Of a DNA stretch of 26,274 nt, positions 1 through 25,964 are shown piece after piece. The notes under the pieces were generated by a model. The model searched no databases. It was not told where the DNA came from and saw only the letters and a list, made by a program, of their open reading frames with translations. Source of the DNA: a virus; the UHGV virus genome UHGV-0174150; one strand, given 5' to 3'. Both the position numbers and the translations under genes were made by a program. The stretch's first letter is position 1, and each line of letters opens with the position of its first letter.

Positions 1-396
1 TTTCCTGAGAAAAGCGAAACAATTGAGCAGTATCTTGTAAAGGAACTTCATGGTGTTGATTTTGGATGGACGCCAATACAGTCCATACAAGAGTCTGTAT
101 ATCAGACATGTGTTGAGCCACTGATCTCTAATGGATTTATGGTTTCACGTATACATAAGATGAATGGTCAGCTAGGTTTTCCGCCAGATATGATTCCTAA
201 TGGTTTACTGCCGCTGCCGAGATTTAGTAATACAGAACATCGTATGCACGCAATAATTGATACAGATCATTATGTTGAAGGCAACATGTCAACTGATTTG
301 CAGTTAATTGAAAAACAGATTCTTTCGTTGCATAGTAAAGTTAAAGAAGCATTTGAAGGCATGGTTTCAGATTTTGCGCGTGCTATTTGGTACTGA
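1..396 (+). CDS. hypothetical protein, C-terminal part; 5' end outside window
   Basis: Frame 1 is open from nt 1 to TGA at 394-396; the ORF track reports only the 139-396 part from an internal ATG. AT-rich like the two downstream ORFs. No motif recognised. Confidence 0.45.
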   Translation, partial: FPEKSETIEQYLVKELHGVDFGWTPIQSIQESVYQTCVEPLISNGFMVSRIHKMNGQLGFPPDMIPNGLLPLPRFSNTEHRMHAIIDTDHYVEGNMSTDLQLIEKQILSLHSKVKEAFEGMVSDFARAIWY

Positions 397-415
397 AACT
401 ACGGGGGTGACTAAA

Positions 416-1078
416 ATGTATGCAATTCCTACTGGAAGCATAGGCTCTGTAGATCGGTATACTCCAGATTCGCAGTCAAGCTCATGTGTATCAGGTGTTG
501 TTGCTGTCGCCGCATCTTTACTATTAGTTGGTACGGGGGCTTCATACCCTGTAAATGCTTATAAGCAATGGCGTCAGTATGTTCAGCCAAGGGTTCAGTT
601 TGCATTTGATTCCATAGAGTCAACGTACACGCCTGCAATTTCTCCTGAGGTTGATGTCAGGAATGTTGCCCAACATTTGGCTAATATTCGAGAAGTGCTG
701 TCTCCATCAATGTCAGAACTGGCTAAGGATTTGGGGATAACTCGGCAGGCTCTCTATAAATGGTTGTCAGGGGAGAACCAGCCTGATGATGCTTCAAAAG
801 TCCAATTCATTACCAACCTCAGTAATGTTGCTGACTCTTTTTCCAAAGCTGGACTCAATGATGCGAAGCTATTGGTGAAAATGAAAGCATTCAATGGTAG
901 GTCATTGATGGACTTAATAAAAGAAGGTGAGGATTGGAACAAGCCAGTTCAGGTACTGATTGATGAAGCTAAAGCGATGAATGCAGCTGCTGAATCGACC
1001 AATTACTTAGCAAGCAAGGCGAAACCGACAGATGATTGGAAGTCATCTATTTCAATTCCTAGAACAGTAGAGGAATAA
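416..1078 (+). CDS. hypothetical protein with XRE/Cro-type helix-turn-helix motif
   Basis: ATG at 416 with GGGGGTGA Shine-Dalgarno at 403-410, 20 nt after the upstream stop. Segment SMSELAKDLGITRQALYKWLSGENQP looks like an HTH_3 motif. Gly/Ala-rich hydrophobic stretch near the N-terminus. AT-rich. Confidence 0.55.
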   Translation: MYAIPTGSIGSVDRYTPDSQSSSCVSGVVAVAASLLLVGTGASYPVNAYKQWRQYVQPRVQFAFDSIESTYTPAISPEVDVRNVAQHLANIREVLSPSMSELAKDLGITRQALYKWLSGENQPDDASKVQFITNLSNVADSFSKAGLNDAKLLVKMKAFNGRSLMDLIKEGEDWNKPVQVLIDEAKAMNAAAESTNYLASKAKPTDDWKSSISIPRTVEE

Positions 1079-1087
1079 ATCACATTT

Positions 1088-1936
1088 ATGTTGGTACGAG
1101 GAACATCATGGCGTCAGGGGCATGTTCTTAAACATGATGATGCCGTTTCACTTGGACTTCTGAAGCCTGATGAAACGAACCATAAAGTTGTAGTTATAAC
1201 GCATGATTGTGATTTACAGAGTAATTCTGAAAAAAACGTGGAACTGATGTTTGGCCCCTTGAAAAAGGGGTCAAGCAAGATGAAAAGAGCTAAGCATCCG
1301 AGAATCCTCGATCTATGCTTTGAAAACCCAGAAAGTGCTAAGAAGAACGCAGTAGAGCTTCGGCATGAAAGAAAAGTCATCATTTCTAAAGAAGCTTTCC
1401 GTTGTGAGGAAAACGATCCGGCATTCTCCATTAGCACAGAAGAGAAACAAGCTCTTAAGCAATGGTTAGCAGCTAAGTATGGTCGTCCAGCGTTTCCTAA
1501 CTCGTTTGAAGAGCGCTTGCGGGCTTACGACGAGGATAAAAAGTTTATTTTCGAAAAAGAAGTTGCGGACATTATCGCCACAAACGCAGAGCATTTGATC
1601 GGAGTTTTTTTCGATTTGGGCGAAGAAAGATTTAACGATCTTGAGGAAGGCATACCATATGAGCTTTCTATCAATGTTGTTTATGATGCAACTGAAGGTG
1701 GCCCCGATGCCAGAGGGGCGGCTGAACAAACCTGTTCTGATCTAAAGGCATTGTTTTATAAGTTTTATGGTGATCCAATCTTGGGACATTCAGAGCTTAT
1801 AGAATTGAATACGTGCATTGCTGTTGCCGATACTCATTTCTCCCTGTATGCATTGAGGCGGATGGATCAATGGAGGGTGGAATACATCAGCCTTGAAGAA
1901 GATTCATATGGCGATTTCATTGGTGCCGGTGTTTAA
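1088..1936 (+). CDS. hypothetical protein (282 aa), possible effector partner of the HTH protein
   Basis: ATG at 1088 with GAGGAA about 12 nt upstream, 9 nt after the previous stop (operon-like spacing). AT-rich. No Walker A, HEPN or PD-(D/E)xK motif recognisable by eye. Stop codon lies inside the 1930-1965 palindrome. Confidence 0.6.
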   Translation: MLVRGTSWRQGHVLKHDDAVSLGLLKPDETNHKVVVITHDCDLQSNSEKNVELMFGPLKKGSSKMKRAKHPRILDLCFENPESAKKNAVELRHERKVIISKEAFRCEENDPAFSISTEEKQALKQWLAAKYGRPAFPNSFEERLRAYDEDKKFIFEKEVADIIATNAEHLIGVFFDLGEERFNDLEEGIPYELSINVVYDATEGGPDARGAAEQTCSDLKALFYKFYGDPILGHSELIELNTCIAVADTHFSLYALRRMDQWRVEYISLEEDSYGDFIGAGV

Positions 1937-1973: not shown

Positions 1974-3008
1974 TCAAGCATCGCCTAATTTATATTCGTC
2001 AAAACGAATAATTTCGTCATTAAGCCATTCATTTAATTCCATTAATCTTTTTTGAAGTGGAATCAATTCATTACGAACGAATACTCGACTAGCTTTTTCC
2101 ACGTCTCCAAACCCACCAACGTTGCTCGGCATAATTCCCATCATCTGCGGTGGCACGCGGTGCGCTGCCATCATGTCATCGCGGCTAACGTTCTTGATGT
2201 TAAGAAACTCGTCTTTCGCCGCAACCTCTGATAACGGGATGATCTGGATGCCGTCCTTTTTGCCGTTGGGCGAATACATAAACAGGTTGCGGAAGTTACC
2301 CGGTCCTTTGGCGCTTTTCATTGCCTGACGGATATTGTTCACATCCTCCTGGTTCTGTGCTGCGTCGGTCATGTACATAATGAAACCTGCGTGGCTGCCG
2401 TTGATGTAATACTTCCGGCGAAACAGCGTTGCGGACTCGTTGAGCAGGGTTGACGGGATGGCGGAGAGATAGCCTGGCAGCCCGTAAATCTCCTGGTTAA
2501 TATCCGGCTCCAGCAGATGAAAGATGCTGCCCTGCGTAAATTCATAGGGCTGCGTGGTCATGCCATACTGCACAAACCAGTAGGTATCCAGGTCTAATCC
2601 ACGTCGGGTGTATTTTGCCAGGGCAGGCTCAAGGGCGATAACTTCACCGAATCGGTTCGTGCGTTTCTCCAGGTAGGCGTTACCAAATACCAGATAGTCC
2701 TGCACAAAACGCGAAAAAGCCTGCTGGCTGAGCAGCGGATGAGGGATATAGGTACTGGTCAGAATGTTGCACTTTACTGCAATCGGGGAACTGTGATGCA
2801 CGGCGGCGCGGAAGGTGCGCGCCAGTCCGTCAAAGCTGACGGGCGGCTCATACCAACGGTCCATCTGTACGCATTCCACATAGTCCAGCAGTTCACGGCG
2901 GTCCAGAACAGGAACGGGATCGCCGAAGCTGAATGCTTCGGCTGTAGTTTGACTTTTAAGCTGGATCTGTTTCGTCGCCGCAGCTCGGTTCTTCTTACTC
3001 TTTCCCAT
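1974..3008 (-). CDS. Q: portal protein (P2 Q-like)
   Basis: 344-aa ORF whose position and length match P2 gpQ. Start ATG overlaps the P stop (ATGA coupling); the ORF track extends 1 codon further to a TTG. Confidence 0.9.
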   Translation of the reverse strand: MGKSKKNRAAATKQIQLKSQTTAEAFSFGDPVPVLDRRELLDYVECVQMDRWYEPPVSFDGLARTFRAAVHHSSPIAVKCNILTSTYIPHPLLSQQAFSRFVQDYLVFGNAYLEKRTNRFGEVIALEPALAKYTRRGLDLDTYWFVQYGMTTQPYEFTQGSIFHLLEPDINQEIYGLPGYLSAIPSTLLNESATLFRRKYYINGSHAGFIMYMTDAAQNQEDVNNIRQAMKSAKGPGNFRNLFMYSPNGKKDGIQIIPLSEVAAKDEFLNIKNVSRDDMMAAHRVPPQMMGIMPSNVGGFGDVEKASRVFVRNELIPLQKRLMELNEWLNDEIIRFDEYKLGDA

Positions 3009-4774
3009 CAAAAAATCTCCACAATATTGCTGGTATTGGCGGATTCGCCCTGCAGCGGTTCGTTAAACAGTGCGTGCATCGTTGCCCATGCCAGATCGGC
3101 GTGGCTGGCTTCTTCGCTGCGGCTGGCTTCATAGGTCGGGCGGTTGCCACTGGCGGTGGTGGTGCGACGGATTGCCATAAATGACTGCGCAATGTCGGTA
3201 TGTCCGGCGTCAAACTCCAGACGGCGGTGGCTGATAATGTCGTAGGCCTTGAGTACCAGGGCGTTTTTAACGTTGGGGTTGTAGACAAACTCCCGGACGG
3301 CAGGAAAGAACGCTTTCACGTTCTCGTAAACCCCGTGACCAACGCCGGTTGAGTCGATGCCGATGTAGGTCACGTTGTACTGCTCGGTCAGTTTTTTGAT
3401 TGCGTCAGCCTGGGCGCGGAAGTCCATCCCGCGCCACTGGTGACGCTCAAGAATGCGAAACTTACCGCCCGGCACGGCTGGCGGTGCCACCACCACGCAT
3501 CCGGCGCTGTCGCCGTTCTGCGTACCTTTTGCCGGGTCATAACCGATCCACACTTCGCGCCAGCCAAACGGGCGCAGGGCCAGAGCATGAAAGTCGGTCC
3601 AGACTTCCCAGCTGTCCACCATGCACGCCTGCAGCTCGCTGAGCGGGAACACGGACGCGAGATCGTCCACGAACTCGCACATCAGCAGGTTCTGGTATTC
3701 GTCCGGGCTGTACTCCATGCGCAACTGGTCAAGGTCGAACAGGTTACAGCCGCCGCGCACCGCATCTTCCACGGTGACTATCTGGCGGTATTGCCCGTCT
3801 GCGCACAGCAGGCCGGGGGCCAGATTGCTATGGGACAGGTCGATGTCCACCTTGTCGGCTTTGTTGCGTCCACGGTTGAACAGTGCACCGGACCAGAACG
3901 GATAAGCACTGTGGGTCAGGCTGGATGGCGTGGAAAAATAGGTTTGTCGCCATTTTTTGTGAATAGCCATACCGGAAGCCACTTTGCGCAGCTCCTGGAA
4001 TTTCGGTATCCAGAAATATTCATCCAGATACAGGTTGCCGTGGTAACTCTGGGTCGTGCCGCCAATGGTCTCGAGGAAGTATAGAGTGGCCCCCTAGGGA
4101 AGCTACATCGGTGCGCCTTTCAGCTCCACCTCCACTTCTTTGGCGAAGTCGATGATGTACTGTTTAAAGACGTGGGCCTGTGCCTTACTGGCGGAAAGGA
4201 AAATCTGGTTACGTCCGGTAAGCAGGGCGTCAATCAGGGCTTCACGGGCAAAGTAAAAGGTCGCGCCGATCTGGCGTGACTTCAGCAGGTTGCGGATGCG
4301 GTTGGCTTTTCCGGCTTCCCTCCAGTGGCGCTGGTAGTTGAACATGGAGGAATGGAAGATTTCTTCCAGCTTCTCAATCTGCTCATCGGTGAAAACATTC
4401 TTTTCCGGCTGACGGCGCGGGCCTTTGTTGCGGTTGGCGACGTTAGGGTTTAAGTCGGCTTCGTTGCCGCCATTGTTAAACTTGCTGATCCGCGCGTGGC
4501 GCTCCGACTGGCGCGCCAGCAGGTCAATCTCTTTGAAATCTTTCCCTTCTTTGTGCTCCTTCATAATGAGCTGGCAGTAGCGTGCGGCGGTGGTGAGCTG
4601 CATCTGATCCAGCGGCCCATAGTCACCCCACTTGTCGCGTTTTTTCCAGCTGTGAACGGTTGCAACTTTCTCGCCCAGCATTTCAGCAATGCGGGCTACG
4701 CGGTATCCCTGAAAGTACAGCAGCATGGCCTGCCGACGGGGATCGAGATCTGCGGGTGTCAGTGTGGTGTTCAT
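3008..4774 (-). pseudogene. P: terminase large subunit (P2 P-like), single frame interrupted by two in-frame TAG codons at 4103-4105 and 4094-4096
   Basis: ORFs 4103-4774 (N-terminal part) and 3008-3982 (C-terminal part) are in the same frame. Reading through gives ...KGAPM*LP*GATLYFLETIGG... with no other stop; total 589 codons, about P2 gpP size. Neighbouring residues align to P2 P as recalled from memory. Confidence 0.85.
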
Positions 4775-23824: not shown

Positions 23825-24043
23825 ATGATGATTTGCCCACTGTGTGGAAGTGCCGCCCATACTCGCAGCAGTTTTCAGGTATCTTCATTGACCAAAGAGC
23901 GTTACAACCAGTGCCAGAACATTAACTGCAGCCATACTTTTGTTACCCATGAAACTTTTGTTCGTTCGATTGCAACGCCAAAAGAGTCAAATCCGGTTCA
24001 GCCGCATCCAATGAAATCAGGACAGGTGGCGCTCTCTCTTTGA
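23825..24043 (+). CDS. ogr: Ogr-type zinc-finger late transcription activator
   Basis: 72 aa from ATG 23825 (GGGGAGA Shine-Dalgarno upstream); CPLCG...C..C zinc-finger and KERYNQCQNINCSHTF closely parallel P2 Ogr. Confidence 0.85.
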   Translation: MMICPLCGSAAHTRSSFQVSSLTKERYNQCQNINCSHTFVTHETFVRSIATPKESNPVQPHPMKSGQVALSL

Positions 24044-24120
24044 CGCTGCCGCCAATTTGTCGCCATCGTTAAAAAACAGCGCTTCTAACATCATGATTTT
24101 AAAAGGCATAAATTTCAGGC

Positions 24121-24166
24121 AACAAAAAACCCATCAACCTTGAACCGAAATGGCGGGGTTGATGGG
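24121..24166 (-). terminator. rho-independent terminator-like hairpin for the minus-strand host gene
   Basis: On the minus strand CCCATCAACC-(17-nt loop)-GGTTGATGGG followed by TTTTTTGTT, about 110 nt downstream of the ybjL stop. The loop is unusually long. Confidence 0.45.
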
Positions 24167-24278
24167 CTCCACAAAATGGGGACATCAAAGAAAAGCAGTG
24201 GCACTAATTAAGACTGATGCCCTGCGGAAAAGTTCTGCGGTTGTGCAAAAAAATTTCATTTTCAGGGCAACTTCAGTT

Positions 24279-25964
24279 TTATCCTAATCCTGGCCATACC
24301 ATGACGATGATTGTCCCTGCCAGCGTCAGCAGGACGTTGGCGATTGCATAGGTGCCCGCATAGCCCAGCGCCGGGATGTTACTGCGAGCTGTATCACTGA
24401 TGATCTCCATTGCCGGCGCGCAGGTACGTGCGCCCATCATTGCGCCGAACAACAGCGCGCGGTTCATTCGCAATACATAAGCACCGAACAAGAAACAGAT
24501 AACCACGGGCACCAGACTGACAATCAATCCGGCAATCAACATCTGACCGCCAATCGCGCCCAGGCCGTTATTAATACCGCTACCGGCGCTCAGACCAACG
24601 CCTGCCATAAACACCATCAAGCCGAACTCTTTCACCATGCTTAATGCACCCTGCGGAATGTAACCGAAGGTCGGGTGGTTAGCACGCATAAAGCCCAGCA
24701 TAATTCCGGCGAATAACAACCCGGCAGCGTTCCCCATGCCGAAACTGAATGTGCTGAACTGGAAGGTGATCATCCCGATCATCAGCCCAATAACAAAGAA
24801 GGCGCAGAATGCCAGCAGGTCAGTGACCTGGCTGTGAATCGAGATAAAGCCGATGCGATCGGCGATGGTTTTTACGCGGCGGGCATCGCCGCTGACTTGT
24901 AAAACGTCACCTTTGTTAAGCACGACGTTGTCATCTATCGGCATCTCAATCTGGCTACGAATGACGCGGTTAAGGAAGCAACCGTGATCGGTCAACTTCA
25001 GTTGTGCGAGACGTTTACCTACAGCGTTATGGTTTTTAACGACCACTTCTTCAGTGACGATACGCATGTCGAGAAGGTCACGATCGAAAACTTCTTTACC
25101 GTTACGGAAGCTGGGATCGAGTCGGGCATGGGCGTCGGGATAGCCTACCAACGCTATTTCATCGCCCATTTGTAGCACGGCATCACCGTCTGGATTTGCC
25201 AGAATCCCGTTACGTCGAATACGTTCAATGTAGCAGCCGGTTTGTCGATAAATACCCAGTTCACGCAGATTTTTGCCGTCGGTCCAGGCCACCAGTTCCG
25301 GGCCGACGCGATAGGCGCGGATCACCGGTAAATAAACCTTACGGTTGGCATCAGTGTCCAGGCCACGTTCGCGGGCGATTTGCTGGGCGCTGGTCTGTAA
25401 GTCCTGATGCTGCAATTTCGGCAAGTAACGCGCACCAACAATCAAACTCACCAGACCGATTAAATAGGTTAAGGCATACCCGAGGCTCAGATTATCCAGT
25501 GCCAGTGAGAGCTGCCTGCTTTCCATGCCGGAATGACGCAGTGTATCGCCAGCACCGACCAGAACCGGTGTCGACGTCATAGAGCCTGCTAACATACCGG
25601 CCGTCAGGCCAATATCCCAGCCAAACAGCTTACCTAACCCTAAGGCGATCACCAGCGCACTGCTAACCATCACCAGTGCTAGCATTAGGTAATTTTTCCC
25701 ATCGCGAAAAAAAATGGAAAAAAAGTTCGGTCCGGCTTCGACCCCGACGCAGAAAATAAACAGCATAAAGCCAAGATTAAGCGCATCGGTGTTAATGCTG
25801 AAATCTTGTTGGCCTAATAACAGCGATACGACTAAAACGCCAATGGAATTACCCAGTTGGATCGAACCAAGTCGTAACTTTCCGAGACATAGCCCAAGCG
25901 CGAGGACCACAAATAATAACAGAATGTAATTCCCATTTAACAATTCGGCGACGTTTATATTCAC
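24279..25964 (-). CDS. ybjL: AAE-family putative transporter (YbjL/YidE-like), host chromosomal gene
   Basis: 561-aa multi-TMD protein with a central soluble region; I recognise it as enterobacterial YbjL from memory, not from a search. GC and codon usage host-like. Confidence 0.85.

Follow-up and report, generated by a model that had tools for sequence, protein, structure and literature searches.

The P2 gpA-gpQ hotspot was defined by Rousset et al. 2022 (PMC9122126), who validated several anti-phage systems from it, and further defence systems from the same hotspot were described by Vassallo et al. 2022 (PMC9519451). Table S5B of PMC9122126 lists, as P2-hotspot system #59, a set of three proteins with the Pfam annotation 'HTH_31', 69 occurrences and the remark '1 TM in protein 2' (TM, transmembrane). 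Here we describe a cassette of three open reading frames (ORF1, ORF2 and ORF3) at positions 1-1936 of UHGV virus genome UHGV-0174150; the whole stretch analysed, 26,274 nucleotides (nt), is referred to as the window. The cassette encodes the three proteins of system #59, nearly identical to them in sequence, and occupies the same gpA-gpQ hotspot, and system #59 is a catalogue entry only, without a name, a test or a mechanism. A keyword search for later characterisation returned, within the searchable literature, only the 2022 hotspot papers. An earlier reading made from the letters of the window, without database searches (the sequence-only reading), had called the cassette a candidate undescribed system; this goes too far, since the same trio is system #59 and ORF1 belongs to the named family TIGR04255. 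We tentatively propose, with slightly less than even confidence, that the trio is a self-contained, horizontally mobile module working as a tripartite toxin-antitoxin (TA)-like abortive-infection or exclusion system. The cassette and its junction with the prophage comprise the following features.

1-396, plus strand, frame 1: ORF1, the C-terminal 131 codons and stop codon of a 269-amino-acid (aa) TIGR04255-family protein, the 5' part of which lies beyond the window
416-1078, plus strand: ORF2, a 220-aa Cro/C1 (XRE)-type helix-turn-helix (HTH) protein, the presumed regulator/antitoxin
1088-1936, plus strand: ORF3, a 282-aa protein of a family without a name, the presumed effector
1930-1965, no strand assigned: a perfect inverted repeat, with arms of 16 nt each at 1930-1945 and 1950-1965 and a 4-nt loop
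1974-3011, minus strand: the portal gene Q, convergent with ORF3

The sequence-only reading had described three co-directional, tightly spaced ORFs that are more AT-rich than the prophage body and converge on Q across a perfect palindrome, and this description was borne out. Its coordinates are exact, all three ORFs lie on the plus strand with gaps of 19 nt (ORF1-ORF2) and 9 nt (ORF2-ORF3), G+C content is 38-43% over positions 1-2000 versus 52-63% from about 2200 onward, where the structural genes lie, and the 16-nt palindrome arms are longer than had been implied. The entire cassette spans ~2.8 kb; in the E. coli copy the full-length ORF1 gene (L001:8587-9396) encodes 269 aa, and the ORF1 fragment in the window is 97% identical to the C-terminal 131 aa of this orthologue. 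Homologues of each ORF number in the hundreds, with E-values as low as 1e-187, and ratios of nonsynonymous to synonymous substitution (dN/dS) between the window and the E. coli copy are 0.11 for ORF1, 0.24 for ORF2 and 0.10 for ORF3. The three ORFs are therefore genuine genes and not chance ORFs, and purifying selection acts on all of them.

Linkage of the three genes was assessed by profile searches of six-frame ORFs. At 71 of 71 loci, comprising 8 targeted loci and 63 from a scan of one genome per species, the three genes adjoin one another, point the same way and keep the order ORF1, ORF2, ORF3. When ORF1 was used as bait against IMG/VR, 45 viral contigs matched, and all 42 contigs not cut by a contig end carry the full trio. 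Thus, at 113 of 113 related loci with enough sequence, the trio is adjacent, co-directional and in the same order, and it is also intact at three loci of a ~30%-identical subfamily. The 63 species loci are mostly from Proteobacteria, with several phyla represented in all; labels of metagenome-assembled genomes (MAGs) in the species scan are Nitrospirae, Chloroflexi, Acidothermus, Omnitrophota, Holophagae, Chlamydiae, Methylacidiphilaceae and Sorangium. The ORF3 homologues of Methylococcus, Shewanella, Komagataeibacter and a divergent E. coli prophage each follow genes of ~265 aa and ~210 aa. The settings of the trio are prophages, plasmid-like contigs and defence-island-like surroundings. Such absolute linkage of three genes across phyla is unusually clean comparative evidence for joint action of their products.

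The position of the cassette was compared with those of its closest copies. In E. coli 07-4299 (NZ_CP027462.1, 1006860-1009300) the cassette belongs to a 186-like prophage, in which a replication endonuclease gene and a DinI-like gene precede it and the portal gene follows. Wherever a cos-like 19-mer, GGCGTGGCGGGGATACGAG, was detected in a P2-type prophage locus, it lies ~150 bp 5' of ORF1, namely at L001:8428-8446 (just outside the window), in loci L007, L010 and L124-L126, and in most of the viral contigs L080-L109; a few viral contigs gave no match to this 19-mer. Because it lies upstream of ORF1, the cargo slot of the 186-like lineage is placed between cos and Q. Of 5,426 complete E. coli genomes, 1,253 contain the portal/terminase segment of the window and 18 the cassette, and none of the 56 phage records that have the structural module in common carries the cassette. 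Sister prophages hold unrelated genes in this slot: a cytosine methyltransferase with a NotI-family endonuclease (a type II restriction-modification system), a HIRAN-domain protein with a hypothetical protein, or two other hypothetical proteins. The comparison across related prophages that the sequence-only reading had suggested as a check thus reveals a varying locus at which the cassette is not conserved, in agreement with the assignment to variable hotspot cargo made there. Located between replication endonuclease and portal genes, beside cos, in a variable slot and with foreign base composition, the cassette qualifies as cargo of a P2/186-like prophage, carried in its cos-proximal gpA-gpQ hotspot. 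Trio alleles that are 45-100% identical are found beside P2-type portals 62-96% identical to Q, and the presence of divergent alleles beside Q-like portals therefore points to repeated capture or long residence at the hotspot. In viral contig L110, which has a P2-type cos, the trio is situated on the other, replication-gene side of cos. Separately, two places in the E. coli genome NZ_CP025840.1 match the cassette, possibly reflecting two prophages that carry it.

Outside prophages, the trio is flanked by mobile-element, TA and defence genes, among them AbiEi/AbiEii, Vsr, MazE, DUF1156 with DUF499, HTH-PIN, RelB/ParE and Fic genes, resolvases and integrases. DUF1156 and DUF499 form a methylase/ATPase pair typical of defence islands, and the trio adjoins these two genes in two distant lineages (L073 and L002), in the second of which AbiEi/AbiEii and Vsr are also present. 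A recurring pair of neighbours was observed 5' of the trio at four loci in unrelated genomes (L033, L034, L040 and L048, from Hydrogenophaga, Dyella, Arenimonas and a proteobacterial MAG), consisting of a ~1,200-1,240-aa ORF on the opposite strand and a ~310-370-aa ORF. This recurrence suggests a larger common mobile element or island.

ORF3 is the candidate effector. It matches no Pfam, NCBIfam or PADLOC family, and its sole PHROG match is a family of unknown function. In the structure model, and by two independent methods, its N-terminal domain of ~110 aa is predicted to adopt a MazF/Kid/CcdB-like fold, an SH3-like barrel. Alignment of the family shows that W8, Q10 and H39-D40-C41-D42 in this domain are invariant, as is the motif KQWLAxxYGRPAFP in the C-terminal alpha/beta domain; the C-terminal tail is conserved too. 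As judged from the alignment, the invariant polar residues of the N-terminal domain would be typical of an active site. The C-terminal alpha/beta domain weakly resembles pol-beta-type nucleotidyltransferases, a group that includes the MNT and AbiEii toxins/antitoxins, with no evident canonical G[GS]...[DE]x[DE] motif. An exhaustive profile search gathered an ORF3 superfamily of 1,955 clusters at 50% identity, nearly all of 260-290 aa; the ~30%-identical subfamily retains HDCD and WLxxRY motifs and is likewise without a Pfam or PADLOC match. Alignments of the three families show no evident HEPN Rx4-6H, Walker A or canonical nucleotidyltransferase motif, and sequence searches of the three proteins and their profiles against PDB chains gave no match. 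The earlier statement that no product has a motif of a known defence family thus stands at the sequence level (no PADLOC match) and gives way at the level of the ORF3 model, with its MazF-toxin-like N-terminal domain.

ORF2 contains a Pfam HTH_3 domain at aa 98-124 (E 5.5e-5, 23.6 bits; cut-off 23), and profile searches detect HTH_3 in 58 of 64 homologues, the best at E 9e-10, which places it in the Cro/C1 (XRE) HTH group and confirms the HTH seen in the sequence-only reading. Consistent assignments were obtained from phrog_8, a transcriptional regulator family (E 1.8e-14), and from RefSeq, where the protein is annotated as a regulator of the XRE family. Besides the HTH, the family has a conserved GTGS motif, a helical region 'KMKAFxGRSLxDL' and, at the C terminus, the tail SKxKPxxDWxxxxSIPG. 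The idea that the helical region after the HTH is a toxin-binding domain of the DUF2384 (Xre_MbcA_ParS_C) type finds no support in the sequence, as 0 of 64 homologues match it in Pfam at E <= 0.1, and the ORF2 profile retrieved no MbcA, ParS or Xre-RES antitoxin from PDB sequences. The moderately hydrophobic N-terminal segment is TM-like in hydropathy (KD19 >= 1.6) in 26 of 64 homologues and falls below 1.0 in 17 of 64. Because the segment is not consistently TM-like, '1 TM in protein 2' was not retained as a firm family feature, and membrane anchoring of ORF2 is uncertain.

The E. coli orthologue of ORF1 matches NCBIfam TIGR04255 along the full length of the model (180.7 bits, E 4.3e-53, model positions 1-252 of 252), well above the cut-off of 30 bits for this hidden Markov model. 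TIGR04255 is a named family without assigned function. Searches of the searchable literature for TIGR04255, CHP04255, IPR026349 and the WP (RefSeq) accessions of the three proteins found nothing, and profile searches returned no Pfam, PADLOC or PHROG family for ORF1. The model of a close ORF1 homologue is confident (predicted local distance difference test, pLDDT, 91; predicted template modelling score, pTM, 0.88) and consists of a nine-stranded antiparallel sheet with helices behind it. In model comparison, this sheet was likened to guanidino kinases, glutamate-cysteine ligase, S-adenosylmethionine decarboxylase (AdoMetDC) and the TATA-binding protein. Invariant charged residues lie on the strands (R40, R129, R133, E169, H221, D225, D227 and H228), and on the model this Arg/His/Asp-rich surface may be a ligand-binding or catalytic face.

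These features suggest how the proposed abortive-infection or exclusion system might operate. ORF3 would be the effector, because of its toxin fold, its invariant polar cluster and its more frequent inactivation, and with a MazF-like N-terminal domain and an invariant His-Asp-Cys-Asp it would probably be a toxin that targets RNA or arrests growth in some other way. Split or truncated copies of ORF3 occur at ~4-5 of the 63 species loci (L061, L063, L071, L069 and L067), of ORF1 at 2 of 63 (L022 and L069) and of ORF2 at 0 of 63. More frequent inactivation of ORF3 than of ORF2 fits a costly ORF3 and a protective ORF2, a pattern of little weight given the small numbers and the many MAGs among the loci. 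ORF2 is the likely neutraliser, given its operon position, typical of type II antitoxins, and its conserved tail; it may act as a DNA-binding autoregulator that holds ORF3 in check, possibly through that C-terminal tail. ORF1 would then be an obligatory sensing or activating partner, which may bind or modify a phage- or stress-derived ligand. The idea of an HTH regulator with an effector, put forward in the sequence-only reading, is thus upheld for ORF2 as the HTH regulator, and ORF3 is a plausible effector. A wider reading is possible, though doubtful: that the trio represents a hitherto unrecognised, widespread tripartite immune family of ~2,000 ORF3 clusters (at 50% identity), in which a TIGR04255 enzymatic or ligand-binding sensor of guanidino-kinase/AdoMetDC/TBP-like fold frees or activates a new two-domain effector, MazF-like and nucleotidyltransferase-like, from an XRE-HTH inhibitor.

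Support for a TA-like anti-phage system comes from the strict linkage of the three genes, the purifying selection on each, the predicted MazF-like fold and invariant polar residues of the ORF3 N-terminal domain, the Cro/C1 HTH gene directly upstream of ORF3, separated by a 9-nt gap as in type II TA operons, the experimentally known richness of the P2 gpA-gpQ hotspot in anti-phage systems (PMC9122126; PMC9519451), the type II restriction-modification system that fills the slot in another prophage, the divergent alleles beside Q-like portals, and the TA and defence genes near the trio outside prophages. Among the 150 flanking ORFs nearest to the trio, PADLOC matches are to type I methyltransferases, BrxA, Hhe, SoFic, a type IV restriction endonuclease, PDC-S37 and PDC-M68B, a raw listing with no genomic baseline behind it. 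Several points weigh against it. The likeness of ORF3 to MazF is at the level of the fold only, with 11-18% identity; ORF3 gives no PemK_toxin Pfam match at E <= 1 and is 2.5 times the size of a MazF, and its model has a pTM of 0.56 with the C-terminal 20 residues, including the tail DQWRVEYISL, unmodelled. No system model of PADLOC-DB v2.0.0, which includes the PD-T4/T7/lambda, PDC and HEC families, is matched by any of the three proteins. ORF1 and ORF3 have no PADLOC match even at E 1-10, ORF2 has only weak HTH-level matches, and 41 distant ORF3 relatives compared with PADLOC yielded nothing meaningful. The systems that Vassallo et al. 2022 obtained from the hotspot are all in PADLOC-DB, and the cassette matches none of them. 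The conserved peptide strings of the trio are absent from the tables of validated and additionally tested systems in PMC9122126, from which it follows that system #59 was catalogued there but untried, and the cargo of the P2 hotspot is not confined to defence but extends, for example, to partition systems and a cytolethal distending toxin (PMC9122126). For the proposal as a whole, the reality of the genes, the predicted folds, the linkage, the mobility and the hotspot location are shown; toxicity, neutralisation, sensing and anti-phage activity are inferred.

The junction between the cassette and the structural genes is marked by the inverted repeat, in which a repeat search showed the arms to be 100% complementary and the ORF3 stop codon to fall inside the repeat. 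As RNA, the repeat has a folding energy of -27.9 kcal/mol (z = -6.7), which 0 of 200 shuffled sequences equalled. The E. coli copy L001 retains the hairpin apart from a single change in the loop, but it was not found 3' of ORF3 in the more distant copies L007, L003 and L009, and it is therefore regarded as part of the insertion junction and not of the trio. It is probably a bidirectional transcription terminator for the convergent ORF3 and Q. A scan of positions 1-2100 for simple promoter and terminator consensus sequences gave nothing above shuffle expectation and missed this hairpin because its T-tract is short. An Rfam scan of positions 1-2000 identified no RNA family, and no convincing conserved operator palindrome was seen 5' of ORF1 across lineages.

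The remainder of the window provides further information on the state and extent of the prophage.

3008-4774, minus strand: the terminase ATPase gene (gpP), with two in-frame stops ('...KGAPM*LP*GATLYF...')
about 23826-24044: an ogr/Delta-like zinc-finger ORF, adjoining RybB
24121-24199, minus strand: a full-length RybB small RNA (Rfam RF00110, 105 bits)
24279-25964, minus strand: a 561-aa ORF, corresponding to ybjL in a sister E. coli locus

At the RybB/ybjL region the prophage reaches its right end and joins the chromosome. The two stops in gpP sit in a cluster of ~13 substitutions within 60 nt (about 4054-4113), and two other prophages, L001 and L007, are identical to each other across this patch. 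The prophage in the window is probably packaging-defective, or else the patch is a recombination or sequence artefact.

Three other explanations of the trio were weighed. An addiction or stabilisation module, in which post-segregational killing keeps prophages, plasmids and islands in place with no dedicated anti-phage role, is unlikely but has evidence in its favour. On plasmid-like Komagataeibacter contigs the trio lies beside Rep/ParA/resolvase and HTH-PIN genes, and on a Ralstonia element it lies beside ParB/RepB, recombinases and RelB/ParE; the logic of a MazF fold combined with an HTH protein would be the same, and in the window the terminase gene has two in-frame stops, yet the cassette is intact and under purifying selection. 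However, a simple addiction module needs no third, equally conserved partner of 269 aa, and dedicated defence genes are among the neighbours. Many TA modules at the P2 hotspot defend against phages, so the two roles are not exclusive.

We consider it improbable that the trio is a regulated accessory enzyme pair (a lysogenic-conversion 'moron'), with ORF1 and ORF3 acting on a small molecule or host macromolecule under the control of ORF2. Such a pair would be in keeping with the invariant charged residues of ORF1 on a sheet resembling those of guanidino kinases, glutamate-cysteine ligase and AdoMetDC, with the weakly nucleotidyltransferase-like C-terminal domain of ORF3, and with the virulence and partition cargo that the P2 hotspot also holds. 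Against this, no metabolic genes are consistently adjacent, the neighbours being heterogeneous and mostly mobile, TA or defence genes; conflict systems typically show such a patchy spread across phyla while keeping a near-identical architecture, and the MazF fold is overwhelmingly a toxin fold. That the trio belongs to the phage's own replication, packaging or regulatory core, as its position between cos and the portal gene and the presence of an HTH protein might suggest, is effectively refuted by the distribution data, since only 18 of the ~1,250 E. coli genomes with the portal/terminase segment and 0 of 56 phage records contain the cassette, unrelated genes replace it in sister prophages, and it occurs in non-phage chromosomal and plasmid contexts with a base composition foreign to the prophage.

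If the trio is indeed an anti-phage or exclusion system, this would be the first function for the TIGR04255 family and the first for a superfamily of ~2,000 protein clusters that has neither a name nor a Pfam model. The cassette is small, and it is available in close E. coli copies together with the sequence natively upstream of it, so that its function is cheap to test.

Beyond system #59, the trio can be compared with several described systems. Rst_3HP ('hp + hp + hp'; pFR109, from E. coli E1114), which was validated against P1, is also a three-gene system of the P2 hotspot with no recognised domains. Its proteins are of 333, 359 and 227 aa versus 269, 220 and 282 aa in the trio, and identity between the two was rejected (best BLASTP E 0.04 in a three-sequence database; profile searches E >= 0.09). 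With MazEF, PemIK and Kid-Kis the trio shares the predicted MazF/Kid/CcdB fold of the ORF3 N-terminal domain and a DNA-binding protein encoded directly upstream in the same operon. Unlike MazF and PemK (~110 aa), ORF3 has 282 aa, an extra C-terminal domain and the motifs HDCD and KQWLAxxYGRPAFP; its partner is the 220-aa XRE-HTH protein ORF2 and not a MazE/AbrB or ribbon-helix-helix antitoxin, and the TIGR04255 gene is an obligatory third component. By sequence, ORF3 thus falls outside PemK_toxin, membership of which is recognised by a Pfam match, a length of ~110 aa and a MazE/PemI-type partner.

PD-lambda-2 (Vassallo et al. 2022) is composed of a HigB-like toxin, an Xre-HTH-peptidase and a P4-antitoxin-like protein. 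An operon of three TA-like components, a central Xre-type HTH protein and occurrence on E. coli mobile elements are common to it and the trio, but its PADLOC model is not matched by the trio, ORF2 has no peptidase domain and the toxin fold is different. For RosmerTA, the likeness is restricted to the HTH: the weak PADLOC matches of ORF2 to RmrA have E-values from 6e-4 to 3e-2 and extend over only ~60 residues, against a profile length of ~390 positions, and the trio has neither an M78 peptidase domain nor an RmrT homologue. The old/tin exclusion genes of P2 occupy the same variable, cos-adjacent locus as the trio and encode unrelated proteins; the order in P2 is Q-cos-old, whereas in the 186-like lineage described here the cargo lies between cos and Q. 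Taken together, the cassette is true hotspot cargo that matches no known defence family and is already known as a catalogue entry, system #59; the interpretation in the sequence-only reading is partly supported, and the trio is placed among TA-like, prophage-borne conflict modules, its function being unproven. Should it act against phages or by exclusion, the known prophage-borne defences would gain an architecture of three components, made up of a MazF-fold effector, an XRE regulator and an enzyme-like partner.

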